A DNA stretch of 46,339 nucleotides from an uncultured Gammaproteobacteria bacterium (GCA_964443785.1 CAYUER010000004.1:2234-48572); one strand, 5' to 3'; positions 1 to 24,997 are shown, counted from the first letter of the stretch. Translations and numbers: made by a program. The notes: generated by a model not told the origin, from the letters alone.

Positions 1-57
1 TATTTAGTATCAATCTGTTATTTAGTTTATCATAACAGCCATTAACTGCAATATTAT

Positions 58-97
58 AAAAAAATTGCGCCCCTCGACCGGTGATCGGACGAGGGGC
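58..97 (-). terminator. intrinsic terminator of the 103..399 gene
   Basis: GC hairpin GCCCCTCG/CGAGGGGC (69-76 pairs 90-97) with inner CCG/CGG (78-80 pairs 86-88). On the minus strand it is followed by a T-run (A-run 58-64 on the plus strand). Confidence 0.7.
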
Positions 98-102
98 AGA
101 AT

Positions 103-399
103 TCAAGCAGAGGTGCGCTCCATGGTAGCCTTGTAGTGATGATCGAGCATGTCGCTGATCTTCCGAGCGTCGAGATTCATGCTCTTGAGCATTTCTTGGA
201 ACTTGGCATCCTGGGGGATGCGTCCGTTGTTGATGAAGATGGGGATCAGGACACCACTAAAGAGTCCTGAGTTTTCGTGACCATCTTCTTGCATGGTCCT
301 CAGTCTCTTCAGGGTAGACCAGAAGTGCTCGTCTTCTAGATTCGCCACCCAATGGATAGCGTGACTTTCGAAATGGAGAAGAGTAGGTTGTTTTGCCAC
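103..399 (-). CDS. hypothetical protein, high-GC cassette copy 1 (98 aa); weak similarity to the N-terminal half of the 2083..2547 product
   Basis: ORF with a GTG start preceded by AAGGAGG at 6-nt spacing. It has its own promoter and terminator. Codon style is GC-rich, unlike the neighbours. I recognise no family. Confidence 0.65.
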   Translation of the reverse strand: MAKQPTLLHFESHAIHWVANLEDEHFWSTLKRLRTMQEDGHENSGLFSGVLIPIFINNGRIPQDAKFQEMLKSMNLDARKISDMLDHHYKATMERTSA

Positions 400-445
400 A
401 AGCTTCCTCCTTGAAGAACGATGAACGGTTGTACGGGAACATCTT

Positions 446-474
446 ATACTAACATTTATTGGCTATTTAGTCAA
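446..474 (-). promoter_or_regulatory. sigma70-type promoter of cassette 1
   Basis: Minus strand reads TTGACT (469-474), a 17-nt spacer, then TAGTAT (446-451) with a TGn extension. The -35 region TTGACTAAAT is identical to that of cassette 2. Confidence 0.55.
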
Positions 475-533
475 TAGCGTCATTTGCCTGAAAGTACAGC
501 TTTGCTATAAAATAGAAGATATACATCATATTT

Positions 534-995
534 ATGTTAAAAATCACTATAGTAGCGGTCGGTAAAATCAAAGAGAAATTTTGGCAAACAGCCATAGAGG
601 AATATAGCAAAAGATTGAAGCCATATGCTGTACTTAATTTTGTAGAAATAAAAGCTGAGTCATTTTCTAGTCAAAATAAAAAACAGGCACAAGCTAATGA
701 AAATCAACGTCTTATAAATGCTTTAGAAAAATATAATAAACAAAATGTTTATTTATTAGCAGAAGCTGGTCAAGAATTTGATTCTCTAAAATTTGCAAAA
801 TTTATGGCCAAGCAGTCAGAGATTATTTTAGTCATTGGCGGAGCCTTGGGTTGGGCAGAGGAGATCAAACAAAAATATCCACAAACAATTTCTTTGTCTC
901 AGCTGACTATGCCTCATGAGATGGCGAGAGTAGTCTTACTAGAGCAAATATATAGAGCTGTGAGTATTATCAAAGGCAAAGAATATCATTATTAA
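534..995 (+). CDS. rlmH: 23S rRNA (pseudouridine1915-N3)-methyltransferase RlmH (SPOUT)
   Basis: 153 aa. N-terminal MLKITIVAVGKIK, a VIGGALGW glycine-rich loop and a C-terminal LLEQIYRA..YH tail are typical of RlmH. Confidence 0.85.
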   Translation: MLKITIVAVGKIKEKFWQTAIEEYSKRLKPYAVLNFVEIKAESFSSQNKKQAQANENQRLINALEKYNKQNVYLLAEAGQEFDSLKFAKFMAKQSEIILVIGGALGWAEEIKQKYPQTISLSQLTMPHEMARVVLLEQIYRAVSIIKGKEYHY

Positions 996-1003
996 GTAGT
1001 TTC

Positions 1004-1032
1004 TTGACTACTTTTTATTTTTACTATATAAT
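1004..1032 (+). promoter_or_regulatory. sigma70-type promoter of the arsR-sdpI pair
   Basis: TTGACT (1004-1009), a 17-nt spacer, then TATAAT (1027-1032). Confidence 0.65.
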
Positions 1033-1057
1033 TAGATATATATCTAAATATCTAATT
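1030..1057. promoter_or_regulatory. probable ArsR/SdpR-type operator (three half-sites)
   Basis: AATTAGATAT (1030-1039) is followed by its inverted partner ATATCTAA twice in tandem (1040-1047 and 1048-1055). TTAGATATATATCTAA (1032-1047) is a perfect 16-nt palindrome overlapping the -10 box and the transcription start. Confidence 0.5.
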
Positions 1058-1065
1058 AAATAGCC

Positions 1066-1335
1066 ATGTCTTTGACTAAAACCTTTGCTGCTCTATCAGA
1101 ACCAAATCGCCAGAAGATTTTGGATTTATTGAAAAAAGGCGAGTTGTCGGTCAATGAAATTGGTAAATATCTAGATGTGACTACTCCGACTTTGTCTCAT
1201 CACCTCGATATTTTGAAAAGAGCTGATTTGATTTCTAGTCGTCGTAGCGGTCAGCAAATTATTTATTCTCTAAACTTTAGTATTTTAGAAGAAGTAGCCG
1301 AAAAAATTGCGAAATTTTTAGCAATTAAAAAATAA
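1066..1335 (+). CDS. ArsR/SmtB-family (SdpR-like) transcriptional repressor
   Basis: 89 aa winged HTH: ALSEPNRQKILDLL...LSVNEIGKYLDVTTPTLSHHLDILKRADLI...R.GQQIIYSL. Confidence 0.85.
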   Translation: MSLTKTFAALSEPNRQKILDLLKKGELSVNEIGKYLDVTTPTLSHHLDILKRADLISSRRSGQQIIYSLNFSILEEVAEKIAKFLAIKK

Positions 1336-1354
1336 ATAATAATAAATTAAATTT

Positions 1355-2020
1355 ATGAGATCAGCAATTAAATTGAGTTGGAAAAGCGAAGCTTGGTGTA
1401 TCTTGGTCACCTTGGCGACTGTGGCTTTGAGTTTTTATTTTTATGCGCACTTTCCTGAGCAGGTAGTGGGTCATTGGAATTTTGCTGGCCAGCCAGATGA
1501 CTGGACTAGTAGAGCCGGCGGTGCTTTTGGTATGGTAGGAGTTTTGATTTTTATGTATGTTTTATTTTTGGCTTTGCCAATGCTTGATCCCAAAAAAGAT
1601 CGTTATGCGGATTTTGAAAAAGTTTATCATTTGTTCAAGAATATCATGGTAACTTTTTTTGCTGTTATTTATGTTTTATCTGGTCTATATAATTTAGGTT
1701 ATCCGATTCAGATTCAATTTTGGGTGCCCTGGTTGGTTGGTTTATTGATGATTTTGATTGGCAATTATTTAGGTAAATTGAAACGCAATTGGTTTGTCGG
1801 TATCAAAACACCTTGGACTCTGTCATCGGAAAATGTCTGGAACAAAACTCATCGGGTCGGTGGCTGGATGTTTATCGTCTTTGGTGTTTGCATCATCATC
1901 TCACCAAATTTACCCTATGCCTGGGGCGCTGGTATATTTGTCGGTGGTGCGGTACTAGCTACTTTTGGCTCAATGCTCTATTCCTATATAGTGTATCTAC
2001 AAGAGAAAAAAAATAAGTAA
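1355..2020 (+). CDS. SdpI/YhfL-family membrane protein (DUF1648 + SdpI immunity-like domain)
   Basis: 221 aa, multi-pass. N-terminal HFPEQVVGHWNFAGQPDDW (DUF1648-like). GNYLGKLKRNWFVGIKTPWTLSSENVWNKTHR matches the SdpI family core. It follows the ArsR gene after a 19-nt gap, as in sdpR-sdpI. Confidence 0.75.
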   Translation: MRSAIKLSWKSEAWCILVTLATVALSFYFYAHFPEQVVGHWNFAGQPDDWTSRAGGAFGMVGVLIFMYVLFLALPMLDPKKDRYADFEKVYHLFKNIMVTFFAVIYVLSGLYNLGYPIQIQFWVPWLVGLLMILIGNYLGKLKRNWFVGIKTPWTLSSENVWNKTHRVGGWMFIVFGVCIIISPNLPYAWGAGIFVGGAVLATFGSMLYSYIVYLQEKKNK

Positions 2021-2072
2021 AAAAAATTCAGGGCTCGTCTCGCTCTGCGTGAGCAGTAGCGGACGAGCCCTG
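2019..2072 (-). terminator. intrinsic terminator of the 2083..2547 gene (may also stop sdpI)
   Basis: Long GC hairpin: CAGGGCTCGTC (2029-2039) pairs GACGAGCCCTG (2062-2072), with inner CGCT/AGCG and CTGC/GCAG stems. On the minus strand a T-run follows (A-run 2019-2026), which overlaps the sdpI stop codon. Confidence 0.75.
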
Positions 2073-2082
2073 TGTTGTGTGC

Positions 2083-2547
2083 TTAGTGCACGCGGAGTCC
2101 CAGCCTGCGGGCCGTCAGTTCTAGCGCAGTAATGGCCTCGATGCGCCAGTGTCCTTTCTCATCCTTGGTGGCCCTCAGCTTTTTGGCTGCGATCAGTCGC
2201 CGCACTTCTCGTGGCGGTAGCCACAAGATTTGTGCTGCTTCGATGCAGCTGATGTGTCCGCTGAGCTGTTCAAAGATGAGGCGGATGTTCTCGCTGATGT
2301 CATGGGGATTTACTCTCAGCCTTCGGCAAAGCTGGGTAAAATCCATGTTCTCCGGGATGATGCCATCGGACAGGATAATGGGCCTGTAGATGTCGTTGAA
2401 CACCCTGACTTCATTGTCCTGTTTGCTGCCATGTCGTGCCAGCGAGATGCTGTAGACCAGGTTCACAGCCTCTTTGAACACCTCCTTTTGGATGTCGTCA
2501 GCCTTGGCCCACCAGGACAAGCAGGGGATCTCTTGGTTCAGGTCCAT
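2083..2547 (-). CDS. hypothetical protein, high-GC cassette copy 2: unknown N-terminal domain + C-terminal excisionase/MerR-type HTH
   Basis: AAGGAGG lies 5 nt before the ATG at 2547; an in-frame GTG at 2553 is an alternative start. The C-terminal ISCIEAAQILWLPPREVRRLIAAKKLRATKDEKGHWRI fits the HTH_17/excisionase pattern. The N-terminal half weakly resembles the 103..399 product. Confidence 0.7.
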   Translation of the reverse strand: MDLNQEIPCLSWWAKADDIQKEVFKEAVNLVYSISLARHGSKQDNEVRVFNDIYRPIILSDGIIPENMDFTQLCRRLRVNPHDISENIRLIFEQLSGHISCIEAAQILWLPPREVRRLIAAKKLRATKDEKGHWRIEAITALELTARRLGLRVH

Positions 2548-2607
2548 GTTCACCTCCTTGTAGACGTTGCATTGTGTGCGGTTGCCGGGCTAAAAGAGCG
2601 GAGGCGT

Positions 2608-2636
2608 ATTATGCACTATTTTAGAGATTTAGTCAA
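2608..2636 (-). promoter_or_regulatory. sigma70-type promoter of cassette 2, -35 box inside the elp3 3' end
   Basis: Minus strand reads TTGACT (2631-2636), a 17-nt spacer, then CATAAT (2608-2613). The -35 context TTGACTAAAT matches cassette 1. Confidence 0.5.
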
Positions 2637-4226
2637 GTAGGTGCCCTGAAGTTTGTAGCCTAGTTTGCGATAGTAATTGCGGACACCAATGCCAGAAATA
2701 ACGGCTATTTTTTTTATTTTATAGTCGCGAGTGATTGTTTCAGCTTCTTGCATGAGGCGTTTGCCTAGGCCCAGGTGTTGGGTTTTGCCAATTTCATCAT
2801 CCAGATTTTCATCGTAGACTGGTATCATCTGGCCATAGACATGGAGCTCGCGCACGATAGAGGCACTTTTGAGCTCCGGAAAGATGTTATTTTTTAAATC
2901 ATGATTGATACGCAAACGCAAAAAAGCATAGACCTTGCTGCGGTCTTTATTTTCAAAGCTTAAAAATATTTCTTTACCACCACTAGCGTCATATTCGCGG
3001 TGGACCAATTCTAAATCTTTGAGTTCATATTTATCATCGCGCACTTCGCGACAGCGTAAGCACTGACAAGAGGCTCCCTGTTTTTTGAGTTCAGCTTGTA
3101 AAAATTGGCGGAGATTAGTTATTTTATTGCCAGCTACTATACTTTCTTCTGGAATATCGCGAATCAGGCGATTGATACGCATGTAGGGTGGGACTATTTT
3201 TTTGACAGCGAGGAGCAAATCCAGCAATTGTTTTTTGGTATATGGTTTATATTTTTTAGCTTTGTACCAGCCATAGAGTTCAGCAAATTCGTTGACTACA
3301 CAGGGATATATTTTGATTTGGTCAGGTTGCAAATCAGGGGAGTTGAAAACATACTGAAACATAGCCAAATCTTTTTTGGGAGTAGAGCCAGGTAAATCTG
3401 GCATATAGTGGTGATCTACTTTGAAGCCGGTTTCTTTGAGTAGGTGAGTAGCCTTGATACTTTGCTCAATACTATGTCCGCGTTTGATGAGCTCTAGTAT
3501 TTTATTATCAGTATGCTGGACACCGAGCTGGACGCGTGTGGTACCCAGTCGACGCATTTTTTTAAGCTCAGTCGGGTTGATATAGTCTGGTCTAGTTTCT
3601 AGAGTCAGACCAATGATTTTATATTTAGCAGTTTCGTTTATTTTTTGTTCTTTTTCCAAAGTAAAAGCTTTTCTTTTTTTCTTTTGGCCGAATATGTTGG
3701 CGGCATAAAAACAATCACGGATAAATTCATCTTGATAGTGAGTAGGATAGACAGACCAAGTGCCACCCAAGACCAGTATTTCTAGTTTGTCGACAGCGTG
3801 TCCATTATTTTCTAGAGCTTGGATGCGCATAGTCACCTGGCGAAAGGGATCAAAGAGATTCATCTTGGCCCGGGCGGCGGCTGGCTCATTGGACAGATAG
3901 CTTTTGGGCATGCCGACCTCTGTCGGGCAGTAGACACATTTGCCAGGGCAGACAAAGGGCTTGGTGAGCACCGTGATGACTGATACGCCTGATAGTGTTC
4001 GTACAGCTCTTTTTTTGAGTAGCTGTTCGAAGCTACTATCAGCTTTTATTTTATTTTTTTTCAACAATTGACGATAGGCAAAAATCAAGGTAGCCTTAGT
4101 ATTGGCTGGCAGTTTGCGAGAGCTAAAAGATTGGCGCAATTGTTTAGAAAAATCCAAATCAGTGGCATATTTTTGCCCCATGAGCTCCAGCACAATTTCT
4201 TCGTATATTTTATTATTTTTTTCCAT
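2616..4226 (-). CDS. elp3: Elp3-type tRNA uridine(34) carboxymethyl-forming enzyme homolog (radical SAM + GNAT acetyltransferase)
   Basis: Radical-SAM cluster motif CPGKCVYCP. ETRPD, RVQLGVQ and KxDHHYMPDLPGS blocks and the GNAT motif QHLGLGKRLM all align by eye with Dehalococcoides and eukaryotic Elp3. The ATG at 4226 (MEKNNK) is preferred over the ORF-track start at 4373; the ATG at 4178 is also possible. Confidence 0.85.
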   Translation of the reverse strand: MEKNNKIYEEIVLELMGQKYATDLDFSKQLRQSFSSRKLPANTKATLIFAYRQLLKKNKIKADSSFEQLLKKRAVRTLSGVSVITVLTKPFVCPGKCVYCPTEVGMPKSYLSNEPAAARAKMNLFDPFRQVTMRIQALENNGHAVDKLEILVLGGTWSVYPTHYQDEFIRDCFYAANIFGQKKKRKAFTLEKEQKINETAKYKIIGLTLETRPDYINPTELKKMRRLGTTRVQLGVQHTDNKILELIKRGHSIEQSIKATHLLKETGFKVDHHYMPDLPGSTPKKDLAMFQYVFNSPDLQPDQIKIYPCVVNEFAELYGWYKAKKYKPYTKKQLLDLLLAVKKIVPPYMRINRLIRDIPEESIVAGNKITNLRQFLQAELKKQGASCQCLRCREVRDDKYELKDLELVHREYDASGGKEIFLSFENKDRSKVYAFLRLRINHDLKNNIFPELKSASIVRELHVYGQMIPVYDENLDDEIGKTQHLGLGKRLMQEAETITRDYKIKKIAVISGIGVRNYYRKLGYKLQGTYLTKSLK

Positions 4227-4890
4227 GAGTGATATCAAAAAAGATTTGCAAAATGTGTATGACTCTATAGCCAAAGACTTTTCTAATACTAGATATGTGC
4301 CTTGGCAGGAGTTATCCGTTTTTATACCATATTTGCCTGACGGGGGCAAGATTTTAGACTTGGGTTGTGGCAATGGTCGCTTGTTGAAAGTGATCCAATC
4401 AGCTGGTAAAAAATACGAATATTTGGGTGTTGATTTTAGTGCTCAGTTATTAGAACAAGCTCGTCAGCAATTTCCAGATGAAAATTTTGAGCAAGCCGAC
4501 ATGAGTAAACTAGATTTTCCAAGCAATAGTTTTGATGTCATTTGTCTCGTGGCTTCTTTTCATCATCTAGATAACAAAAAAGAAAGAGAGGAATTGTTAA
4601 ATAAAATGTATTGTTGGTTGAAACCCGGTGGAGTACTTTTTATGACCAACTGGAATCTACTGCAGCCAAGGTATATCCAATATATTTTCAAAAATATTAC
4701 ACAGAAAAAATCTTGGAATGATTTTTTTATACCTTACACCTCACCAGATAGGCAGAGTGTCAATTGGCGCTACTATCATCATTTTACCAAATTAGAGCTA
4801 AAGTCTTTATTATTAAAAGCTGGTTTCAAGCTAGAACCATTGGGTCTTTACAAAAGTAAATACAATTTAAATTGTCTAGTGAAAAAATAG
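4225..4890 (+). CDS. Trm9/ALKBH8-type class I SAM-dependent methyltransferase (putative tRNA cm5U34 methyltransferase)
   Basis: Matches remembered yeast Trm9 blocks:
- VY..IA..FS.TRY.PW (here VYDSIAKDFSNTRYVPW)
- DLGCGNG
- SFHHL....ER.......LKPGG......W
- DFFIPY
- RYYHHFTKLEL
Start taken at MSDIKK (ATG 4225). Confidence 0.75.
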   Translation: MSDIKKDLQNVYDSIAKDFSNTRYVPWQELSVFIPYLPDGGKILDLGCGNGRLLKVIQSAGKKYEYLGVDFSAQLLEQARQQFPDENFEQADMSKLDFPSNSFDVICLVASFHHLDNKKEREELLNKMYCWLKPGGVLFMTNWNLLQPRYIQYIFKNITQKKSWNDFFIPYTSPDRQSVNWRYYHHFTKLELKSLLLKAGFKLEPLGLYKSKYNLNCLVKK

Positions 4891-4892
4891 AG

Positions 4893-5300
4893 CTACTTTA
4901 GATCTAAAAATTCTTCTTCATCATCAAAGCCATAGTCATAAACAATCTCCTCACCTTTGGAGATTTTTTTGAGGGCTTTCATCATCAGATAGCGATCATT
5001 TCTATGTTTTGGGTAATAGATATCAGCGTTGGGATTTTTTCGATCATGATTGTAGATCGATCCATAGCCAAACATGATGCAGTCTTTGCGATGAGTTTCC
5101 AAATACATTGGATAAAAGGTCAATAAGTCAGATTCATTGTCCAGATATTTCACATCTTTTTTGGATAGATAAATGACGGGGAAAGTTTCAATGATTTCTC
5201 CTTTTTTGATATCAGCGGTGGCGACCACACCTAGTCCTTTGCCGGGAGTTTCCACAATTTTGATTTTGGTTGGCGGGATGATTTTGAATTTTTTGGTCAT
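4893..5300 (-). CDS. SET-domain protein (putative protein-lysine methyltransferase)
   Basis: 135 aa: GKGLGVVATADIKKGEII, YNHDRKNPNA (NHSCxPN-like) and GEEIVYDYGF (ELxxDY-like). Confidence 0.75.
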   Translation of the reverse strand: MTKKFKIIPPTKIKIVETPGKGLGVVATADIKKGEIIETFPVIYLSKKDVKYLDNESDLLTFYPMYLETHRKDCIMFGYGSIYNHDRKNPNADIYYPKHRNDRYLMMKALKKISKGEEIVYDYGFDDEEEFLDLK

Positions 5301-5944
5301 ATTTTATTTTTAAAATGTATTTTTATATTTTCAAAAACTTGTGGCCAATTGGGGCAAGGAATGACATGGAGCTGGCTATCAGTCCTATGATGATCATAGA
5401 GAAATATTGTGCCTTCGTATCCTTTGTTTAAAAATTCCAATAGTTTAGCATTGTCATCGATGATGCCTAAAATTTGGGGGTATAGTTCTTGTAAAACTCC
5501 AGCCTTCCATTTATTGCCTTCAGGGTGCGGGACACTCATGGGTTTGCAGATAATCGGTGCCACTGGAAAACCATGTTTATCAAGCCAAATTTTTGTGCCT
5601 TCTATGACACTGGTCGGTCGGACAGTGATATAAGCTGCTACCGGTATGATTTCATTTATTTTATTTAAATAAATATTAGCATCTTCAATAAGCGGTAGAT
5701 TTTCTTGTAGCTCATTCGAGTGTATTTCTTTGTCTATCCATTGTTTGGCTTCATCGTGTTGCCAGTAGGGGACATTGCTAGTGTAGCGGTATTTTTCGAT
5801 GATTTCTTTGACTGATAAATTTTCAGGATTGCCAAAATTTTCTTGGAGTTTGGATACTAGATGACCGATAGTATAAGACAAAGTCTCATCAATATCAACC
5901 GCCAAGCCGGCAATTTCAATTTTTGGGAGAATATTTTTATTCAT
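5297..5944 (-). CDS. HAD-superfamily hydrolase (5'-nucleotidase NT5C-like)
   Basis: DxDxT nucleophile motif VDIDETLS near the N-terminus and a late IIDDN acidic motif. It has a 4-nt ATGA overlap with the downstream SET gene. Confidence 0.6.
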   Translation of the reverse strand: MNKNILPKIEIAGLAVDIDETLSYTIGHLVSKLQENFGNPENLSVKEIIEKYRYTSNVPYWQHDEAKQWIDKEIHSNELQENLPLIEDANIYLNKINEIIPVAAYITVRPTSVIEGTKIWLDKHGFPVAPIICKPMSVPHPEGNKWKAGVLQELYPQILGIIDDNAKLLEFLNKGYEGTIFLYDHHRTDSQLHVIPCPNWPQVFENIKIHFKNKI

Positions 5945-9357: not shown

Positions 9358-12300
9358 ATGTCTAATAAAATAATCCAAAGTAAAAAGCTCTGGTTTCTTA
9401 GTTTTTTAACTTTTCTGCTCCTCAGCATCAACTCTAGTCAAGCAGCTACTTCTCTAGGCTCTCGTCTTTCAGGCTACATCCTCCTCCAAGTAGAATCACT
9501 AGGAGAAGCTTGGTATATCATCCCCAAAGAACAGAAAAGAGTCTACCTCCAAAATGGTAGTGTAGCCTACCAAGCTATGCGTGAACTCTCCTTAGGTATT
9601 ACCAATAGCAATCTCGCTAAAATACCAGTAGGCATAGAACCAAGGTTTAATGATGTAGATACAGACTCTGATGGCCTCTCTGACAATCTAGAAAAAGGAT
9701 TAGATACTGATCCTAATAAAGCAGACACTGATAATGATGGCTTCTCTGATGGCAATGAAATAAAGAATAACTATAGCCCTTTAGGACCAAACAAACTAAG
9801 CTATGATAATACTTTAGTTAATAGACTAAAAGGATATATCCTTTTGCAAGTAGAAAAACAAGGACAAGCTTGGTATCTAAATCCTAAAGACGGTAAAAGA
9901 TACTACATGCAGGATGGAGAAGCAGCCTACAATATCATGAGATTCCTATCTTTAGGTATTACTAATAATAATCTTAAGTTAATACCAATTTCAGATAGAA
10001 AGTTTACTAGTACCAATAATGGTAATTCTTCTTCTGCTAATCAAGGAAACAACAACAATAATAATTCTACTTCTACACCGCCGACTACACCTCCGGGTAA
10101 TGGAAATGGCGGTGGAGGCGGTGGTGGCGGAGGTGGCTCCAATCCACCAAGCGCTGATACTCAAGTGCCCACAACACCGACTAATTTATTAAGCTCAATC
10201 TCAGGAACTCAAGTTTCTCTTTCTTGGACTGCATCTTCTGACAATGTTGGAGTGAGTGGCTATCAAATACTAAGATCAACTACTAATGGTTCTGGTTATG
10301 CTCAAATTGCTACATCCAATACCAACTCATATACCAACACAGGTTTAAGTATTGGTACTACATATTACTATGTAGTCAAAGCTTATGATGCAGCTGGTAA
10401 TATTTCTGCCAATTCTAGTCAGGCTCAAGCTACGCCAGCTGATACTGTGGCACCAACAGTACCTAGTAATTTAGTTGCTTCTGCTTCTGGATCTCAAATT
10501 TCTCTTTCTTGGACAGCGGCCACCGATAATGTAGGTGTGGTACAATACTTGATTGAGAGATCTGCTACCTCCGCTATTTCTGGTTTTACAGAAATAGCCA
10601 CTAGCACAACCTCAGTATATGTTAACACTCGCTTAGCAGTTAATTCTACTTTTTATTATCGTGTCAGAGCTCAAGACGCAGCTGGTAATATTTCAGTATA
10701 TTCATCAGTAGCCTCAGCCACCACTGATAATAGTATAGTTGTTCCAGATACTCAGGCGCCAACAGTCCCAAGTAGTCTTTCAGCTGCTGCCTCTGGCACA
10801 CAAGTTTCTCTTTCTTGGACTGCATCTTCTGACAATGTTGGAGTGAGTGGCTATCAAATACTAAGATCAACTACTAATGGTTCTGGTTATGCTCAAATTG
10901 CTACATCCAATACCAACTCATATACCAACACAGGTTTAAGTATTGGTACTACATATTACTATGTAGTCAAAGCTTATGATGCAGCTGGTAATATTTCTGC
11001 CAATTCTAGTCAGGCTCAAGCTACTGTACCAGTGCCAGTAGACACTCAAGCACCCACTGCTCCGACAACTTTGACGGCAGTAGCTGCCAGTAGAGAAGTG
11101 GCTTTATCTTGGGGTGCTGCTAGTGACAATACGGCGGTGACTGGTTATCAAATTTTACGATCAACCACCAATGGCAGTGGATATGGCTTGGTGTCTACCT
11201 CTAATACCACTGTATATGTAGATATAAATTTAACAAACGGTACTACATATTATTATGTGGTAAAAGCCTATGACGCAGCTAACAATATTTCTGCTAATTC
11301 TAATCAAGCGCAAGCTACGCCAGTCGATAGTGTGGCACCCAGTGTCCCAAGTAATTTGACAGCTACTGTTTCTGGCACACAAGTTTCTCTTTCTTGGGTA
11401 GCTTCTACTGATAATGTAGCAGTGTCACAATATTTGATAGAAAGATCAAGTAGCAATACTTCTAGTTTTACACAAATTGCTACCTCTAATACCACTTCTT
11501 ATACTAATATTGGTCTCACTAATAATAATATTTATTATTACCGCGTCCGAGCGCAAGATAGTAGTAGTAATTATTCTGGATATTCTAATACGGCTAGTGC
11601 TACCGTAGGAACTGTTGTGACTAGCAACCCTAGTATCACTGCCGTGTCTGGAAGTATCAGCTATGGTCAGACGGCGACTATTACGGGAACTAATTTTGGA
11701 TCAAAATCCCAAGTGAGCCCACTGGTGTATGATACTATGGAGTCGGGTAGCTTTAGTCCAAATTGGGGTTCAACCAATCAATTAATAGTTGGTTCAAATT
11801 CTGCTAACAAACGTCATTCCAATTCTAATTATTATGGTACGCAAAATTTCCAAGGCAATTTACGCACCTACCCCAATGTGCCACCAGACGGCAGCGGTTA
11901 TGGTGCTAATGGTTATTTTACTGGTTCAAATAGCCAATTGAGCGATACTTGGTATGGACGTTATTGGTTCAAGCTTGATAATAACTTTGATTTTGGCACT
12001 ACTGGTGAGCCACAAGGCGATGGCAACTTGGCCAATATTAAAATATTCCGTTTGTGGAACCCAGGTAACGTAGATGAAAATTTTGTTGCTGCTACCCAAG
12101 GTTATAATGGTGGTAATATAATTTATACTACCGAACAAACTTTGGAGACAACACATTATATGCCTAGCAATACTTCTGCTTGGACAAAAAATGTTTGGCA
12201 TGTATTTGATTTTGAATTTAAAGAGGGTAGTCTAAATGCTAGTAATGGTATTTTCAGAATGTGGTTTGACGGTAAATTGATTGAAGAAAACAGAGCGGTC

Positions 12301-15243
12301 ATGACTAGGCAGGACTTTGATTTATTAAAGAGACCTCTAATTCTTGGTTTTTATAATTCTTGGTCAGATGGTAATACTGATCGTGATGATTTTTATATTG
12401 ATGATGCTTATATTGATGGTACTTGGGCTAGAGTTATGTTGTGCGATCAATCAACTTGGAATGATTCAGTCAACAGACATTGTGAAATACAATCACCGCA
12501 AAATACTTGGAGCAACACTTCAATCCAGATTGCCGTGAATACTGGCTCATTTACCGCTGGTCAGACAGCCTATATGTATGTAGTGGATAGTAATGGTAAT
12601 GTAAACGCAAGTGGCTATCCAGTTGTTATTTCTGGTATTGCTACTGTCGATACTCAGGCTCCTACTACGCCAAGTAGTCTAAACGCCTCAGTTTCAGGTA
12701 CAACTATTTCATTATCTTGGACCGCCTCAACAGACAATGTTGGAGTTTCCCAATATTTGATTGAAAGATCAACTTCAGCTTCTTCTGGTTTTTCTCAAAT
12801 AGCTACCTCTAATACTACTTCTTATAGTAATAGTGGTTTAGCTAATAGCACAACTTATTATTATCGCATCAGAGCTCAAGACGCAGCTGGTAATAATTCC
12901 GGTTATTCTAGTACGGCTAATGCTACTACGGGAGTAGCTCCAGCAAGTAGCGGTAATTTGATTCAAAATAGTTGGGATTTTTCTAGTTCATCTTGGGATG
13001 CTGACGCTATTGGCACAAATCCTTGGTCACCCATTACTAACTTTACTTTTACCAGTGGTCAGAGTGATCCATTTGGTACGAACAAAGCTTTTAGGATCGC
13101 TATTCCAGGTGCTCGTGGTTGGCAACAGCGCGACTCTATGCCAGATTTGAATTTAAACTATGATGCGGTGACCGCTTCTGTTTATGTCAAATATGGTAGT
13201 GCTGCTAATTTTATCTTTGGCATCACTCAGACGGATGTCTCTTATACAGTAGGAGAGTTTGAACAGACATTTAATTTTGATGCCAATGGTGTGCCGACTT
13301 GGTCTAGTAGCAATACTCATCCGCAAGATGGGCATACTGTCACTAATGTTGGCAATGGTTGGTATAGACTCTCAGTCACCTACAATTTAGCTAGCAGAGG
13401 TATCAAAAATCATCCTTTCTCAGCTAGGGTGACTCCGGCTGGTCAATATTCTGGTGGCGCTTATGCTTATATTACTGGTTTTCAATTAGAATCAGGTACT
13501 GTAGCTACTGCCTATGTTGAGAAGCCAAGTGGCTCTGGTGATACTCAAGCGCCAAGTGCACCGGCTAATCTTTCAGTCTCAGTTTCTGGCACACAGGCAA
13601 CTTTATCTTGGAGTGCTGCTAGTGATAATACAGCAGTGACTGGCTACCAAATATTAAGATCTACTACTAATGGTGGTGCTTATACGCAAGTAAATACTGC
13701 AAACACCACGTCATATACTCATACTGGTTTGACGGCTGGTACTTATTACTATGTAGTGAAAGCTTATGATGCAGCTGGAAACTATTCAGCTAACTCTAAT
13801 CAAGTGATAGTGACTATTGCCAGTCAAGCTGATACACAAGCACCCACGGCGCCTAGTAATTTGACCGCCACTGCTTCTGGTAATCAAATATCTTTGAACT
13901 GGACTGCTTCAACCGACAACGTTGGTGTCTCTCAATATCTGATTGAGAGTTCTATTGGCGGTGGTAGTTATTCTCAAGTTGCTACCTCTAATTATACCTC
14001 TTATACCATGATGAGTTTAGCTGACAATACCGCCTATTCTTGTCGAGTCAGAGCTCAAGATGCAGCCGGTAATATGTCTCTCTATTCTAGTGTAGCTAAT
14101 GCTACGACTGGCACTGGATCAAGCTCCGGTAGTGTCAGTATTTCTGGAGTCAATGATAATACTATTTCTAATAATCAATCTATTACTATTTCTGGCAGTG
14201 GTTTTGGTACAAAAATTGCAGTTGGTGGCATAGTTGGTCCCCCAGTACTTTGGGATAATTTTGAAGATGGTACCAACGGACAATTAGTGCAAGCTACGGC
14301 CGCTAAATGGGATAGAGTGCGTAGTGATAATTTGAGTGGTCCTAGATATTATTCTGGCGCTATAGATGGCTCTATGGGCGTGAGAACTGGATCGGGCATA
14401 TACAATGGTGTGACAGCCGGCACAACTAGAACATTAATAGAAGATGATGAATTCCGCAGCTTGTATTTAGATTATTATATTAAGGCTTATAAAGGTGCCG
14501 GTTTATTACAAAGATCAAATAAACAAGTGATGATTTGGAGCGCCAATGTCGGCGTGAGTGAAGATGGCCCCAATACAGCATTTTGGCAAATAACGCAAGG
14601 TAGTGGAGAACCACCATTTGCGTTTTCTGAATATTCTTGCGCCAATGATCCTTTTTCTATAGTTTATGGCAACGGTTGGGGAATAGATGAATTTACGACC
14701 GCTCGTCATGTTCAAATCGAATATCGCCGGCCTTCAGTTGCTGGTGTTAATAATGGGTATTTACGCATGTGGTATGATGGTGTCTTAGTATCCGAGGATT
14801 CTTCTTTTGGCAGCTATTCTTGTAACCCAGATACAAATTATTTAGATAATTTATACATAGGCCATTATCAAGACATAGATTCAGCTATCGAACCAATTTA
14901 TAAGTGGATTAGTTGTCCCGGTGATTCTCGTTGTGATCAGTGTCCAGCTGGCGCTAGTGGTTGCTCTGTTAATAATGAAAATTGGCTACCTGCTCGTCAA
15001 GATGAATTTTTTTACGACAATATTTATATTGACAAATCCATTGCTAGAGTAGAAATTGGCAATGCCTCCACCTATGGCGCTTCTACTAGACGAGAAATAC
15101 AAGTACCAATGTCGTGGAATAACGGATCTATCCAATTTACTGTTAATAAAGGAGGACTGAGCAGTGGCCAGACTGCCTATATATATGTTTTAGATAGCAA
15201 TGGCAATGTTAATGCCAATGGTTATCCTGTAACTATAAATTAA
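9358..15243 (+). CDS. giant secreted surface protein (1961 aa)
   Basis: Approximate domain order:
- Signal peptide.
- An unassigned ~60-aa repeat (RL.GYILLQVE..G.AWY..P....R.Y...G..AY..MR.LSLGITN.NL..IP) at ~9460-9640 and ~9820-10000.
- The two repeat copies flank TSP3-like Ca-binding DxDxDG repeats (~9650-9790).
- An N/G-rich linker.
- Six FN3 repeats (~10150-11610).
- An IPT-like domain plus jelly-roll module (~11620-12640).
- One FN3 repeat.
- A CBM-like domain (~12945-13530).
- Two FN3 repeats.
- A second IPT-like plus jelly-roll module (~14115-15240). Confidence 0.85.
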   Translation: MSNKIIQSKKLWFLSFLTFLLLSINSSQAATSLGSRLSGYILLQVESLGEAWYIIPKEQKRVYLQNGSVAYQAMRELSLGITNSNLAKIPVGIEPRFNDVDTDSDGLSDNLEKGLDTDPNKADTDNDGFSDGNEIKNNYSPLGPNKLSYDNTLVNRLKGYILLQVEKQGQAWYLNPKDGKRYYMQDGEAAYNIMRFLSLGITNNNLKLIPISDRKFTSTNNGNSSSANQGNNNNNNSTSTPPTTPPGNGNGGGGGGGGGGSNPPSADTQVPTTPTNLLSSISGTQVSLSWTASSDNVGVSGYQILRSTTNGSGYAQIATSNTNSYTNTGLSIGTTYYYVVKAYDAAGNISANSSQAQATPADTVAPTVPSNLVASASGSQISLSWTAATDNVGVVQYLIERSATSAISGFTEIATSTTSVYVNTRLAVNSTFYYRVRAQDAAGNISVYSSVASATTDNSIVVPDTQAPTVPSSLSAAASGTQVSLSWTASSDNVGVSGYQILRSTTNGSGYAQIATSNTNSYTNTGLSIGTTYYYVVKAYDAAGNISANSSQAQATVPVPVDTQAPTAPTTLTAVAASREVALSWGAASDNTAVTGYQILRSTTNGSGYGLVSTSNTTVYVDINLTNGTTYYYVVKAYDAANNISANSNQAQATPVDSVAPSVPSNLTATVSGTQVSLSWVASTDNVAVSQYLIERSSSNTSSFTQIATSNTTSYTNIGLTNNNIYYYRVRAQDSSSNYSGYSNTASATVGTVVTSNPSITAVSGSISYGQTATITGTNFGSKSQVSPLVYDTMESGSFSPNWGSTNQLIVGSNSANKRHSNSNYYGTQNFQGNLRTYPNVPPDGSGYGANGYFTGSNSQLSDTWYGRYWFKLDNNFDFGTTGEPQGDGNLANIKIFRLWNPGNVDENFVAATQGYNGGNIIYTTEQTLETTHYMPSNTSAWTKNVWHVFDFEFKEGSLNASNGIFRMWFDGKLIEENRAVMTRQDFDLLKRPLILGFYNSWSDGNTDRDDFYIDDAYIDGTWARVMLCDQSTWNDSVNRHCEIQSPQNTWSNTSIQIAVNTGSFTAGQTAYMYVVDSNGNVNASGYPVVISGIATVDTQAPTTPSSLNASVSGTTISLSWTASTDNVGVSQYLIERSTSASSGFSQIATSNTTSYSNSGLANSTTYYYRIRAQDAAGNNSGYSSTANATTGVAPASSGNLIQNSWDFSSSSWDADAIGTNPWSPITNFTFTSGQSDPFGTNKAFRIAIPGARGWQQRDSMPDLNLNYDAVTASVYVKYGSAANFIFGITQTDVSYTVGEFEQTFNFDANGVPTWSSSNTHPQDGHTVTNVGNGWYRLSVTYNLASRGIKNHPFSARVTPAGQYSGGAYAYITGFQLESGTVATAYVEKPSGSGDTQAPSAPANLSVSVSGTQATLSWSAASDNTAVTGYQILRSTTNGGAYTQVNTANTTSYTHTGLTAGTYYYVVKAYDAAGNYSANSNQVIVTIASQADTQAPTAPSNLTATASGNQISLNWTASTDNVGVSQYLIESSIGGGSYSQVATSNYTSYTMMSLADNTAYSCRVRAQDAAGNMSLYSSVANATTGTGSSSGSVSISGVNDNTISNNQSITISGSGFGTKIAVGGIVGPPVLWDNFEDGTNGQLVQATAAKWDRVRSDNLSGPRYYSGAIDGSMGVRTGSGIYNGVTAGTTRTLIEDDEFRSLYLDYYIKAYKGAGLLQRSNKQVMIWSANVGVSEDGPNTAFWQITQGSGEPPFAFSEYSCANDPFSIVYGNGWGIDEFTTARHVQIEYRRPSVAGVNNGYLRMWYDGVLVSEDSSFGSYSCNPDTNYLDNLYIGHYQDIDSAIEPIYKWISCPGDSRCDQCPAGASGCSVNNENWLPARQDEFFYDNIYIDKSIARVEIGNASTYGASTRREIQVPMSWNNGSIQFTVNKGGLSSGQTAYIYVLDSNGNVNANGYPVTIN
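10210..10433 (+). repeat. perfect 224-bp direct repeat, copy 1 (FN3 unit)
   Basis: Base-for-base identical to 10801-11024 by manual comparison. The offset of 591 nt (197 codons) is in frame. Confidence 0.9.
10801..11024 (+). repeat. perfect 224-bp direct repeat, copy 2 (FN3 unit)
   Basis: Identical to 10210-10433. Confidence 0.9.
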
Positions 15244-15389: not shown

Positions 15390-18300
15390 ATGAATCGTCG
15401 TTTGCTTGTCACTACACTATTATTATCTGGTCTTATTTTGACCTATTTTAATATTGCTGGCGCCGCCCCCTTGGCCGATAGGCTCAAGGGCTATATTTTA
15501 TTACAAGTACAGAGCCGGGGAGAGGCTTGGTATGTCATTCCCAGCGAATCAAAGAGAACTTACTTAGCTAATGGCCAGGTGGCATATAGCATCATGTCCA
15601 AATTGGGACTAGGTATTACTAATGCTAATTTACAAAAAATTCCAGTCGGCATTGATTCTCGGATAGTGGATATTGACAGCGATGGCGATGGCTTGGGCGA
15701 CAAACTTGAAGAGGGCTTAAAGACTAATCCCAATCACACCGATAGCGATGGTGATGGTTATGACGATTTTGATGAGGTCACTCATGATTATAGTCCCTTG
15801 GGTAAGGCAAAAAATGTTTATGACCAAGCTTTGGTCAATCGTTTGAAAGGAAAAATTTTGTTGCAAGTAGAGGAGAAGGGGCAGGCTTGGTATGTGCACC
15901 CAGTCAATGGCCGCCGTTATTACATGAAAGATGGTCCATCAGCTTATGAGATTATGCGTTTCTTATCTTTGGGTATTACTAACGCTGATTTGTCCCAAAT
16001 TGCTATCTCTAGTTTTAGTGCGGGCTTGCCAAATACAGTATCTGGTGATACTCAGGCACCCACTGCACCTAGTAATTTAACAGCCACAGCTAGCTCTACG
16101 CAGATTACTTTGAATTGGTCAGCGGCGACTGATAATATTGCCGTCACTCAATATCGGATTGAGCGCTCAACTAGCGCGAATTCCGGCTTTAATTTTTTAG
16201 CTACAGTAAATATCAGAAATTATATTAATACAGGGTTAGCGGCCAATACTACTTATTATTATCGTGTCCAAGCTGTGGATGCGGCTGGTAATATATCTGG
16301 CTATTCTAATGTAGCTAGTAGCCGGACTGCTCAGGCCGTTGTCGATACCCAGGCACCGACTGTGCCTAGCAATTTGATAGCCACAGCGACCTCTACTCAA
16401 ATTAGCTTAACTTGGGTAGCAGCGACTGATAACATTGCTGTGGTCAAGTATGAGATTGAGCGATCCACCTCAGCTAGCAGTGGTTTTGCTAATATTGTCA
16501 GTGTGACTAGTAATTCTTATATTAACACTGGTTTGAGCGCGAGTACTAGATATTATTATCGAGTGCGAGCACTAGATGCGGCCGGTAATGCTTCTAGCTA
16601 CTCTAGTATTGTCAATGCTACTACGGGAGCTCAATCAACAACACCACCGCCACCAGCTAGCGACACTCAGGCGCCGACTGCACCTAGCAATTTGACAGCG
16701 AGTTCTACAGCTACTCAGGTTGTTTTGAGTTGGTCAGCTTCTAGTGACAATATAGCAGTGACTGCCTATCGTGTTTTACGTTCCAGCACAAATGGTAGCG
16801 CCTATGTCCAGATAGCAAGCTTGGGCTCTAGTGTTTATAATTATACCGATAATAATTTATCAGCTGGTACTTATTATTATGTCGTGGTGGCAGTTGATGC
16901 AGCGGCCAATGTTTCGGCCAACTCTAATCAAGCTCAAGTAAATGTCATTGGCGAAATTGCTCCTGAGCAATATGTAAATATTGAGCAACCATATAGTGAT
17001 AAAATAGTTGTGGCTAGTATTGAGGCTCCAGAAAATACGAATTATTCTTGGTATAAAAACAACACTCTGCTTGAGAGTGGTTCCTCTGCTACTACTTTTT
17101 TAGCTCATTTTGATGGGGATTTGCTTAATAACAATGAAAATCCATTGCTACAGAGTGGCATCAGCTACGCTAGCGGTAAGTTTGGTCAAGGCATGAGGGG
17201 TAAGGCGCAATATCCGGTAGCCAATAATTTAAATTTTGACGAAGGAACAATAGAATTTTGGTTGACTCTAGACCAGCCTTTAAGTAGCGGTGTGTATAAT
17301 ACCGATCCTTATGTTTTTAACTACATTAATAGTAGTAATTATCAGAAGATAATGATGAACATAAAGGCTGATATCGGTGCCCTAGTTTTTACAGTACACA
17401 GTGGTAGCGCTGATGTTGACTGGAGTGAAGCCGTGCAGATAAATACTCTATACAATGACACTCCGGCCAATCAAGCATTTTTCGTGTCTATGACTTATTC
17501 CAAGTCTACCAATAAATCCAGCCTATATTTAAATGGTTTTAAAATAGCTCAAGATGACTTTTCTGGCTTTAATTTTGATCCAGCCAATAGTAATTTGATC
17601 ATTGGCAATAACTATGCAGTCATTGATGAATTTAGGATACTGAATAAATCTTTGTCAGCAGAACAAATTATGCATGATTATACTCGTGGCAAAGCATTTG
17701 AGTCGAATGAAGTGTATTATGCTGGCACCAAAAATAATAATGATAATTTGCAATTAAGTATTAATTTGGCGGGTGCTAATTATACAGCTAACGCCTTGGT
17801 AAAAAATCCAAAGATTACAAATATATCACCAGATGCTTATGTCTTGTCAAATCGTAGTAGCATCAATTTGAGTTTTAATTCTGTTAGCTCGGCTACTTGT
17901 CGTTATGGTAAACAGGCGGATAATTTTAGTGATTTACCATATGCAGTGAGTGGCAGTGGTACTAGCCATAGTATTAGCTATGTGGTGGGCAGCACAGTAT
18001 CTTCCCATGATTTTTATATCAAATGTCAATCCGACTCAGATGGAGATGACTATGCTTTTTATAGGCGCCTGAGAGTTTTGCCAAGCTTAGATAACAACTG
18101 GCCAAAAATGGGCGCTATTATTTGGGGTAATAATATTAGCAGTAGTGAGGTGACCACTTTAGCTAAGTATGATTTATTGAGTTTAGCCAAAGATAACATC
18201 TCTCGATCTAGCCTGTTAAATCAGATAAAATCGATCAATGAAAAATTGATATTACTACCCTATGTCAATGCTCCTGATAATAATATCAGCTATGGCATCA

Positions 18301-24953: not shown

Positions 24954-24997
24954 AAACCAGCCCAGCCTCTTAGCTAAGAGGCTGGGCTGGTTTTTTT
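24954..24997. terminator. bidirectional intrinsic terminator
   Basis: CCAGCCCAGCCTCTTA/TAAGAGGCTGGGCTGG stem (24957-24972 pairs 24975-24990), flanked by an A-run and a T-run. Confidence 0.8.

Follow-up and report, generated by a model that had tools for sequence, protein, structure and literature searches.

Two small genes near one end of a 46,339-nucleotide (nt) stretch of DNA, recorded as an uncultured Gammaproteobacteria bacterium (GCA_964443785.1, CAYUER010000004.1:2234-48572) and called here the window, raise the question of whether they are imports that still carry a donor's composition or residents whose unusual composition is maintained, and of what their products do. The genes, labeled cassette 1 (cas1, the short paralog gene) and cassette 2 (cas2, the long paralog gene), bracket rlmH and an arsR-sdpI pair. 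An earlier note on this DNA offered three explanations: a duplicated accessory family acquired horizontally, the remnants of a mobile or phage-derived element, or a family of small regulators, some with a DNA-binding domain and some without. The analysis reported here is computational throughout and samples about a dozen metagenomic loci. We consider it somewhat probable that the cassettes encode a lineage-specific DNA-binding regulator and a paralog without a DNA-binding domain, under diversifying selection. The literature searched holds no description of this family or locus.

Composition sets the two genes apart. The 46-kb window has an overall GC content of 40.2%. The open reading frame (ORF) at 103-399(-) has a GC content of 0.50 and a GC content at third codon positions (GC3) of 0.62, and the ORF at 2083-2553(-), listed at 156 amino acids (aa), has values of 0.55 and 0.72, whereas GC3 lies at 0.25-0.49 in every other window ORF of at least 70 aa. 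The earlier note was thus right to single out two GC-rich cassettes in the same orientation, and they are the only compositional outliers in 46 kb. Their parts are as follows.

Positions 55-103, minus strand: intrinsic terminator of cassette 1, with hairpin arms at 63-80 and 86-103 and a T-run at 55-62 (inverted repeat I8, 18 nt, 83% complementary).
Positions 103-399, minus strand: cassette 1 coding sequence (CDS), the short paralog, 98 aa with a GTG start, a four-helix domain alone and a C-terminal ..SA tail.
Positions 400-474, minus strand: leader, ribosome-binding site and predicted promoter of cassette 1, with AAGGAGG at 412-406, -35 TTGACT at 474-469 and -10 TAGTAT at 451-446, with an extended TG.
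Positions 2020-2072, minus strand: intrinsic terminator of cassette 2, with a hairpin at 2029-2072 and a T-run, abutting the stop codon of the convergent sdpI.
Positions 2083-2547, minus strand: cassette 2 CDS, the long paralog, 154 aa with the start placed at ATG 2547, a four-helix N-domain and a predicted C-terminal MerR/Xis-type winged helix-turn-helix (HTH; residues ~103-150).
Positions 2548-2636, minus strand: leader, ribosome-binding site and predicted promoter of cassette 2, with AAGGAGG at 2559-2553, -10 CATAAT at 2613-2608 and -35 TTGACT at 2636-2631, the last within the 3' end of elp3.

On these predictions, each cassette is a complete and independent transcription unit with its own promoter, leader, strong ribosome-binding site and intrinsic terminator. 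A promoter scan returned two sigma70-like candidates, TTGACT-17-TAGTAT at 474-446, with an upstream TG, and TTGACT-17-CATAAT at 2636-2608, which leave leaders of ~45-60 nt for both cassettes. Cassette 2 almost certainly starts at ATG 2547, since the GTG at 2553 overlaps the ribosome-binding site and all homologs are 154 aa long. The shared AAGGAGG Shine-Dalgarno (SD) sequence and the GC hairpin followed by a T-run (63-103 and 2029-2072), both noticed earlier, hold up. The terminator hairpin of cassette 1 is kept in orthologs but the CDS is not (23-87% protein identity), and the hairpin of cassette 2 is kept in orthologs with compensatory changes (RNAalifold helix 16).

Other claimed resemblances between the two promoter regions fare less well. 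The identical -35 context that the earlier note described does exist: the window has exactly two copies of TTGACTAAAT, at 465-474(-) and 2627-2636(-), at 17-nt spacing from the -10 box, against an expectation of 0.19 copies, and two copies were reached in 1 of 100 shuffles. The cassette 2 copy, however, sits in the final codons of elp3 (..YLTKSLK*), where several orthologs read TTGACAAAAT, so the exact identity of the 10-mers is probably in part coincidence and the recurrent feature is TTGAC[AT]AAA. The -10 box of cassette 2 lies just beyond the elp3 stop codon (2616-2618); in L001, L004 and L009, the cassette 2 promoter stands apart from the end of elp3. The proposed leader motif did not survive comparison. 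CCCGTACAACCG is not kept in cassette 1 orthologs and the window copy has a 28-nt leader deletion, so the likeness between the two leaders is probably due to chance.

The two products are true and ancient paralogs. The ungapped similarity that had made paralogy plausible is recovered by BLASTP (9/38 identities, E 1e-5), and a profile-profile comparison of the two families built from orthologs gives a probability of 93.8% and an E-value of 1.8e-7 over 85 columns in hhalign. AlphaFold2 models of the long and short proteins (predicted local distance difference test scores 87.6 and 81.8) agree in the order of their helices, and in both a conserved ..PI...(D/N)GxIP.. turn joins helix 2 to helix 3. 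The shared core, E..W(W/V) ... (L/V)xPI...(D/N)GxIP...F ... I(S/D/N)(D/E), forms four helices over ~90 aa (~95 aa before the HTH in the long protein), and E8, W14, P58, G64, I66, P67, F72 and I86 are invariant in a 15-sequence joint alignment (156-aa numbering from GTG 2553). That two unrelated, fast-evolving orphan genes resemble each other by chance is extremely improbable. A pairwise identity of ~16-24% would suit such an accident, as would the probable coincidences in the leader and the exact 10-mer, but the hhalign score, a joint profile that recovers both window proteins, both families and their fusions, the status of the cassettes as the sole two GC3 outliers in 46 kb, and the same anomaly in all orthologs all speak against it; the profile comparisons and the fused proteins refute it.

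The four-helix N-domain is a novel protein family with no relative in Pfam, NCBIfam, PHROGs, PADLOC, PDB sequences, PDB folds or BFVD folds. The short protein has no Pfam, PHROG, PADLOC or NCBIfam match. In the long protein, residues 105-138 match Pfam HTH_17 (PF12728; E 3.2e-6, 27.7 bits against a cut-off of 27), and 5 of 7 homologs carry a precomputed match to the same model. The C-terminal elements of the long-protein model (helices at 103-110 and 114-122, strands at 128-130 and 136-139, and a helix at 140-150) describe a helix-turn-helix followed by a beta wing. Foldseek aligns this domain with BldC (6amk, 6ama), RacA (5i44) and Pukovnik Xis (4j2n) at probability 1.0, a root-mean-square deviation of 1-2.5 A and TM-target scores of 0.63-0.85. 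The HTH can therefore be assigned to the HTH_17/MerR-like class, by a small margin on sequence but clearly on fold. These results fit the third explanation of the earlier note, a regulator family with and without a DNA-binding domain, as do the fused and adjacent forms found elsewhere.

The family is very rare and almost confined to one chromosomal position. An exhaustive profile hidden Markov model search of 1.84 billion representative proteins, with E up to 1e-3, yielded 27 clusters, and word-indexed searches returned 7, 3 and 15 proteins. Three architectures occur: short proteins of ~100-130 aa (N-domain), long proteins of ~145-170 aa (N-domain and HTH), and fused proteins of 233-248 aa. 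In the fused proteins, hhalign pairs the N-terminal half with the short family (96.1%, E 3.6e-9) and the C-terminal half with the long one (98.6%, E 9e-16). Flanking context is available for 13 loci (L001, L002, L004, L006, L008, L009, L010, L012, L013, L015, L017, L019 and L020), and in all 13 elp3 precedes the family gene or genes and glyA-folD follows, with glyA beyond the contig end in L004 and L008. This position holds across Elp3 identities of 68-95%, and elp3 is the invariant upstream neighbor in all loci examined. Among members with examinable context, the only one seen outside the elp3-glyA interval is a short-only gene of 118 aa in L014 (6007-6363, on the 291-kb contig Ga0257124_1000006). 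In L001 alone, a third GC-rich paralog lies between elp3 and the long gene (5350-5835; 161 aa, N-domain and HTH, GC 0.52) with its own TTGACAAAAT promoter and terminator.

Gene order in the relatives points to the history of the pair. In the window clade (Elp3 85-95%), the order is elp3, long gene, then sdpI, arsR and rlmH on the opposite strand, then short gene and glyA. In distant relatives (Elp3 68-75%), the short gene is followed directly by the long gene (L015 and L020; 1 nt apart in L015), the two are fused (L012 and L013), or the long gene occurs alone (L019), directly between elp3 and glyA and with no sdpRI-rlmH block between short and long genes. Because distant relatives carry the pair adjacent or fused in this way, the bracketing of rlmH-arsR-sdpI is, judging from gene order, a derived and clade-specific arrangement of an older pair. 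As for the hosts, the record labels of family-bearing loci include one Patescibacteria, and L005 (CAYRIU010000026.1), with the same locus type as L002, is labeled 'uncultured Gammaproteobacteria bacterium'; the latter label is probably wrong, the result of a mislabeled metagenome-assembled genome.

The most striking property of the cassettes, which the earlier note missed, is that they exist as discrete, hypervariable alleles while the flanks around them are highly conserved. Between L006 and L017, protein identity is 95% for Elp3, 96% for SdpI and 88% for RlmH, against 32% for cas2 and 30% for cas1. Sliding nucleotide identity for the same two loci is 0.85-0.97 in the flanks and falls to 0.35-0.55 exactly over the two cassettes. 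In cas2, the divergent stretch runs from directly behind the -10 box to the stop codon, leaving the promoter and terminator hairpin conserved; in cas1, it takes in the promoter and breaks off a few codons short of the end of the CDS, and the terminator is conserved. At least five cas2 classes, 26-50% identical to one another, can be distinguished (the window with L001, L004, L008 and L009; L002; L010; L006; L017), as can five cas1 classes (the window with L009; L001; L002 with L010; L006; L017). The two sets do not match: L001 has the cas2 class of the window and a different cas1 class, and L002 and L010 share a cas1 class and differ in cas2 class. Two further differences between L006 and L017 lie in flanks that are otherwise ~90% identical: in L006, a GC-rich palindromic insert of ~70 nt separates the cas2 terminator from sdpI (3993-4065; ..CCCCCTTAACAGGGGGAC..CCCCTGTTAAGGGGAGG..) and ~300 nt lie between arsR and rlmH (5119-5478), both absent in L017. 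A shorter CCCCTTGATAAAGGGG is present in L008 at ~5520-5540, and the CCCCCTTAACAGGGGGAC/CCCCTGTTAAGGGGAGG palindrome may be a small mobile inverted-repeat element.

Synonymous divergence (dS) forms a mosaic along the locus. Between the window and L002, dS is 0.55-0.75 for the methyltransferase gene (MT), elp3 and rlmH, 1.5-1.7 for cas2, sdpI and arsR, and 1.5 for cas1. Between the window and L009, MT (1.97) and elp3 (1.06) are more diverged than the cas2-sdpI-arsR block (0.38-0.54), with rlmH (0.76) and cas1 (0.70) intermediate. Across comparisons of the window with L009, L001, L004 and L008, cas2 dS is 0.38-0.46, that of sdpI and arsR 0.48-0.79, and that of elp3 ~1.0, a cas2 value like those of its neighbors and below that of elp3, which indicates that cas2 was co-inherited with them. 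The locus-wide mosaic suggests that cas2-sdpI-arsR moves as one recombination block. In the same four comparisons, dN/dS is 0.24-0.31 for cas2 and 0.03-0.12 for flanking genes. Divergence of the cassettes in situ seems unlikely, since their synonymous sites are saturated where the flanks are nearly identical; exchange of alleles by homologous recombination through the conserved flanks would give the observed pattern.

The raised GC3 is maintained and is not the fading signal of a donor. Cassette orthologs have a GC3 of 0.57-0.72 in all eight clade loci, against 0.25-0.46 in the flanks, and in deeper pairs GC3 is still high where dS is saturated, with no sign of amelioration. The earlier note had allowed that conserved neighbors with ordinary composition would count against its account of the cassettes; relatives do keep conserved neighbors, but the composition is ordinary in none of the orthologs. 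All G/C-ending codons are raised across the board. CTG stands at 0.44 in the cassettes and 0.08 in the rest of the window, ATC at 0.91 and 0.39, AAG at 0.64 and 0.22, and AGG at 0.30 and 0.06.

Against this background, it is quite unlikely that the cassettes are horizontally acquired accessory genes or mobile or phage remnants whose GC-richness is a donor signature. Such an origin would account for the strongly atypical codon usage and GC3, for an HTH of the excisionase/Xis type, and for sharply bounded allelic segments, which replacement from an external pool could produce. It is hard to reconcile with a chromosomal position that is the same in every related locus at Elp3 identities of 68-95%, with GC3 that stays high at saturated dS, and with a cas2 dS that matches neighboring sdpI and arsR in several pairs. 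No integrase or transposase was found around the cassettes in the window or in any related locus, and no flanking repeat or attC-like core accompanies them. Searches for phage and plasmid homologs of the cassette genes found none, with no useful PHROG match and no PADLOC match, and the family itself amounts to the 27 clusters, almost all of whose examinable members share the elp3-glyA interval. The excisionase model TIGR01764 scores 20.5 bits on the long protein, under its cut-off of 28.8. A functional excisionase was rejected on that score and on the missing integrase, and integron gene cassettes were rejected for want of attC cores and an integrase. The earlier note's first two explanations, horizontal acquisition and a mobile remnant, thus lose their footing.

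Other sources of the bias can also be weighed. Ordinary translational optimization fails to explain the GC3, because the cassettes raise every G/C-ending codon, unlike the likely highly expressed rpsA, nusA, ftsH and H+-PPase genes, which raise NNC to 0.43-0.57 and avoid NNG and CTG. GC-biased gene conversion is unlikely as a sole cause, since sdpI and arsR share the recombination history of cas2 yet stay AT-rich. A codon dependence specific to Elp3 keeps a low probability, as codons outside the split boxes that xm5U34 tRNAs read are enriched too.

Folding of the mRNA offers another lead. Against permutations that keep the protein and the codon counts, CDS folding z-scores are -5.3, -3.7, -5.9, -0.1, -3.5 and -4.3 for cas2 and -3.2, -3.3, -1.4, -1.9, -1.3 and -2.7 for cas1, and range from -3.7 to +0.35 for ten more family genes from other classes and clades. 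The 48 control CDSs have a mean z of -0.78 and a minimum of -3.95. With one value per independent allele (n=18), the family mean is -2.7 (Mann-Whitney p 2e-5 against the 48 controls). Whole transcripts, compared with dinucleotide shuffles, give z-scores of -3.1 and -6.2. For eight cas2 transcripts, RNAalifold predicts a structure of 108 pairs, of which 31 show a compensatory change, as compared with 11 +/- 2.4 in column shuffles, 4-13 in slid controls and 10 of 136 in sdpI. The covariation in cas2 is suggestive, and the excess in folding energy is the firmer result. In the first predicted helix, the leader ACUCCUU pairs with AAGGAG, with one compensatory change in L006; this ACUCCUU lies 1-7 nt past the predicted -10 box and may not be transcribed, so the anti-SD hairpin stays a tentative element of the model. 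Together, the raised GC3 and the surplus in folding suggest that selection acts on codon choice or on the mRNA itself, be it for stability, for the rate of translation or for resistance to AU-directed RNases, and do not point to foreign origin.

The same data might be taken to mean that the main product is a structured or dual-function RNA, with the ORFs secondary and the GC content a consequence of RNA structure, which we regard as very unlikely. Folding energies beyond those of synonymous permutations, the whole-transcript z-scores and the surplus of compensatory pairs over the control gene are what such an RNA would produce. In contrast, a dN/dS of 0.24-0.31 clearly indicates purifying selection on the protein, AlphaFold predicts the folds with confidence, and the HTH is recognizable. 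An Rfam search of window positions 1-3000 matched no family, the only hit being RUF6-5 at 21 bits against 70 (E 0.62). RNA sequence and predicted structure are not conserved across allele classes, and the RNAalifold covariation term is a weak -0.57 kcal/mol for a structure derived from the same alignment of eight sequences.

In our account, the cassettes are the two members of a Patescibacteria gene family specific to one lineage, and the regulator and its paralog would form a small regulatory switch. The long protein would bind DNA through its MerR/Xis-type HTH, joined to the novel four-helix N-domain, and the short protein would act on it as a partner or antagonist through N-domain contacts, as suggested by the domain that they share and by genes that are fused in some lineages and adjacent in others. 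Both genes are resident and vertically placed in the elp3-glyA interval, where they occur as discrete divergent alleles that would be swapped by homologous recombination through the promoter/elp3 end, the terminator and the housekeeping neighbors. Diversifying or balancing selection on some specificity is proposed because the allele classes are sharp and assort independently. Selection on mRNA structure or codon choice would keep GC3 high and might affect stability or the control of translation.

Several points weigh against this account. The HTH_17 score barely exceeds the Pfam cut-off, and both DNA binding and the long-short interaction are matters that we infer. The independent assortment of cas1 and cas2 classes argues against strict pairing or tight allele-specific co-evolution and weakens a simple partner model. 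Some alleles show no folding excess (L006 cas2, z -0.1; L019, z +0.35), background genes such as nusA also reach z ~-4, and the covariation is weak, as noted above. Ancient alleles shuffled by recombination are, moreover, not formally separable from repeated import from an unsampled pool.

The hypervariability might instead reflect an arms race or self/non-self discrimination, the pair being a domesticated immunity or addiction-type module (a repressor/anti-repressor, a toxin-antitoxin-like pair, or a specificity module with SdpR/SdpI). This proposal is unlikely. Discrete hypervariable alleles within conserved flanks are reminiscent of pherotype loci and of the immunity regions of phages, only 1 nt separates the short and long genes in L015, and particular cas2 and sdpI classes tend to occur together. 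The final residue of short-family proteins is nearly always ..A (TSA, ASA, ATA, KAA or PAA; window 103-111), and in L006 and L017 the last codons of the short gene and its stop (GCCGCCTGA) belong to the conserved flank and not to the variable segment; the ending may, speculatively, be a C-terminal degron. Toxin, antitoxin and defense models give a different picture: PADLOC returns no match, and Pfam and NCBIfam find no toxin-like domain in the cassette proteins, with the HTH as their only match. The proteins are paralogous and in some lineages fused, which would be unexpected for a toxin and its antidote, and a type II toxin-antitoxin or known defense system was rejected on these grounds. In the window clade, the pair is 1.5 kb apart with separate promoters, and distant clades have the pair with no sdpRI between or beside it.

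A more elaborate form of the regulatory switch can be sketched, which we regard as a long shot. The elp3-glyA interval might be a strain-identity or specificity switch, in which two independently exchangeable hypervariable cassettes are held by balancing selection (e.g., host, partner or kin discrimination in an episymbiont) and in which non-native G/C-ending codons and structured mRNAs tie translation to decoding capacity, possibly through Elp3 wobble-U34 modification.

The neighboring genes are ordinary in composition, and the identities that the earlier note gave to those between the cassettes are borne out by Pfam and NCBIfam matches.

Positions 534-995, plus strand: rlmH, a SPOUT methyltransferase gene (PF02590, E 2.5e-46), AT-rich and 78-88% identical in relatives.
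Positions 1004-1335, plus strand (CDS 1066-1335): SdpR-type ArsR-family repressor gene (HTH_5, E 6e-14; NF033789 SdpR, 98.4 bits, 1.6 under the cut-off of 100).
Positions 1355-2020, plus strand: SdpI/DUF1648 membrane protein gene (PF13630, E 7e-19; PF07853).
Positions 2616-4229, minus strand: elp3, for a tRNA U34-modifying radical SAM/GNAT enzyme (TIGR01211, 550 bits against a cut-off of 350), with an approximate start taken from orthologs of 535-547 aa.

The adjoining repressor and SdpI-family genes make up an SdpR/SdpI-type pair, with the SdpR model 1.6 bits short. A predicted arsR/sdpR promoter, TTGACT-17-TATAAT (1004-1032; 11/12 matches), is overlapped by palindromes I4 and I5 (1019-1063). 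This AT-rich palindrome of 19-21 nt, TTTTACTATATAATTAGATAT / ATATCTAAATATCTAATTAAA, is likely an SdpR autorepressor operator. SdpI falls into two classes with 68-72% identity between them, one in the window, L001, L004, L008 and L009 and the other in L002, L006, L010 and L017, and the first coincides with the cas2 class of the window. On the far side of elp3, a divergent UbiE-like methyltransferase gene starts within ~20 nt of it (window ~4100-4375; L002 3660-4304 / 4324-5940). The mechanically called ORFs 2616-4373(-) and 4102-4890(+) overlap, so both divergent promoters must lie within coding sequence. Three proteins with fn3/Ig repeats, at 9358-15243 (1961 aa), 15390-19328 (1312 aa, also with GHL15 and laminin-G-like domains) and 24996-26348 (450 aa), are probably cell-surface proteins of a kind common in Patescibacteria. 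The content of the window, with its giant fn3 surface proteins, a type IV pilus (T4P)-type ATPase, lactate dehydrogenase, H+-PPase and Elp3, is consistent with that group.

Patescibacteria (the Candidate Phyla Radiation) have tiny genomes, few recognizable regulators and an obligate partner-dependent lifestyle. If the account of a regulator and its paralog is true, a conserved locus with two hypervariable, independently assorting regulator alleles offers a rare handle on strain-level specificity in uncultured members of the group. Resident genes with a long-maintained, non-native GC3 contradict the usual reading of such islands as recent imports, and the cassettes provide a natural case in which selection for mRNA structure and for codon choice could be tested.

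Comparison with known systems places the pair only in part. Over its last ~50 residues, the long protein matches HTH_17 by sequence and BldC, RacA and Pukovnik Xis by fold. Those proteins consist essentially of an HTH alone or of an HTH with a coiled coil, whereas here the HTH follows a four-helix domain of ~95 aa, and the long protein has no integrase partner and falls under the TIGR01764 cut-off. The two genes that follow rlmH match SdpR (98.4 bits) and the SdpI/DUF1648 families, as in the Bacillus subtilis-type autorepressor and immunity pair, but they are neighbors from outside the cassette family, absent between or beside the pair in distant relatives, and no sdpC-like toxin gene was seen with them. 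Integron cassettes and integrase-less attC clusters are also small, compositionally odd ORFs in the same orientation, each ending in an imperfect palindrome. The palindromes here are instead GC-stem and T-run terminators without RYYYAAC or GTTRRRY cores, and the cassettes have their own promoters, lack intI, are split by rlmH-arsR-sdpI and are fixed in position.

Other parallels lie in antagonist pairs and in polymorphic specificity loci. TrlR of Agrobacterium, which resembles a truncated TraR, pairs with TraR into inactive heterodimers. By analogy only, such pairs resemble the cassettes in that one paralog combines an oligomerization or sensor domain with a DNA-binding domain that the other lacks, and fusion and adjacency in other lineages suggest joint action of the short and long proteins here. 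The paralogs described here differ in being ancient (~16-24% identity) and not a recent truncation, in an interaction argued from gene arrangement and the shared domain, and in that both are hypervariable. The Bacillus comQXP pherotypes, the staphylococcal agr groups and the immunity regions of heteroimmune phages are polymorphic specificity loci that likewise have sharp identity breaks in conserved flanks, several divergent allele classes among close relatives, and evidence of recombination. The elp3-glyA interval differs from them in having no secreted peptide, kinase, processing enzyme or phage gene, in its two independently assorting cassettes, and in its anomalous composition, which is not a feature of those loci. 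The pair is best placed in a known kind, that of small winged-HTH regulators with a partner that lacks a DNA-binding domain, and is unusual in its new domain, in its hypervariability at a fixed housekeeping locus, and in its maintained, non-native composition.

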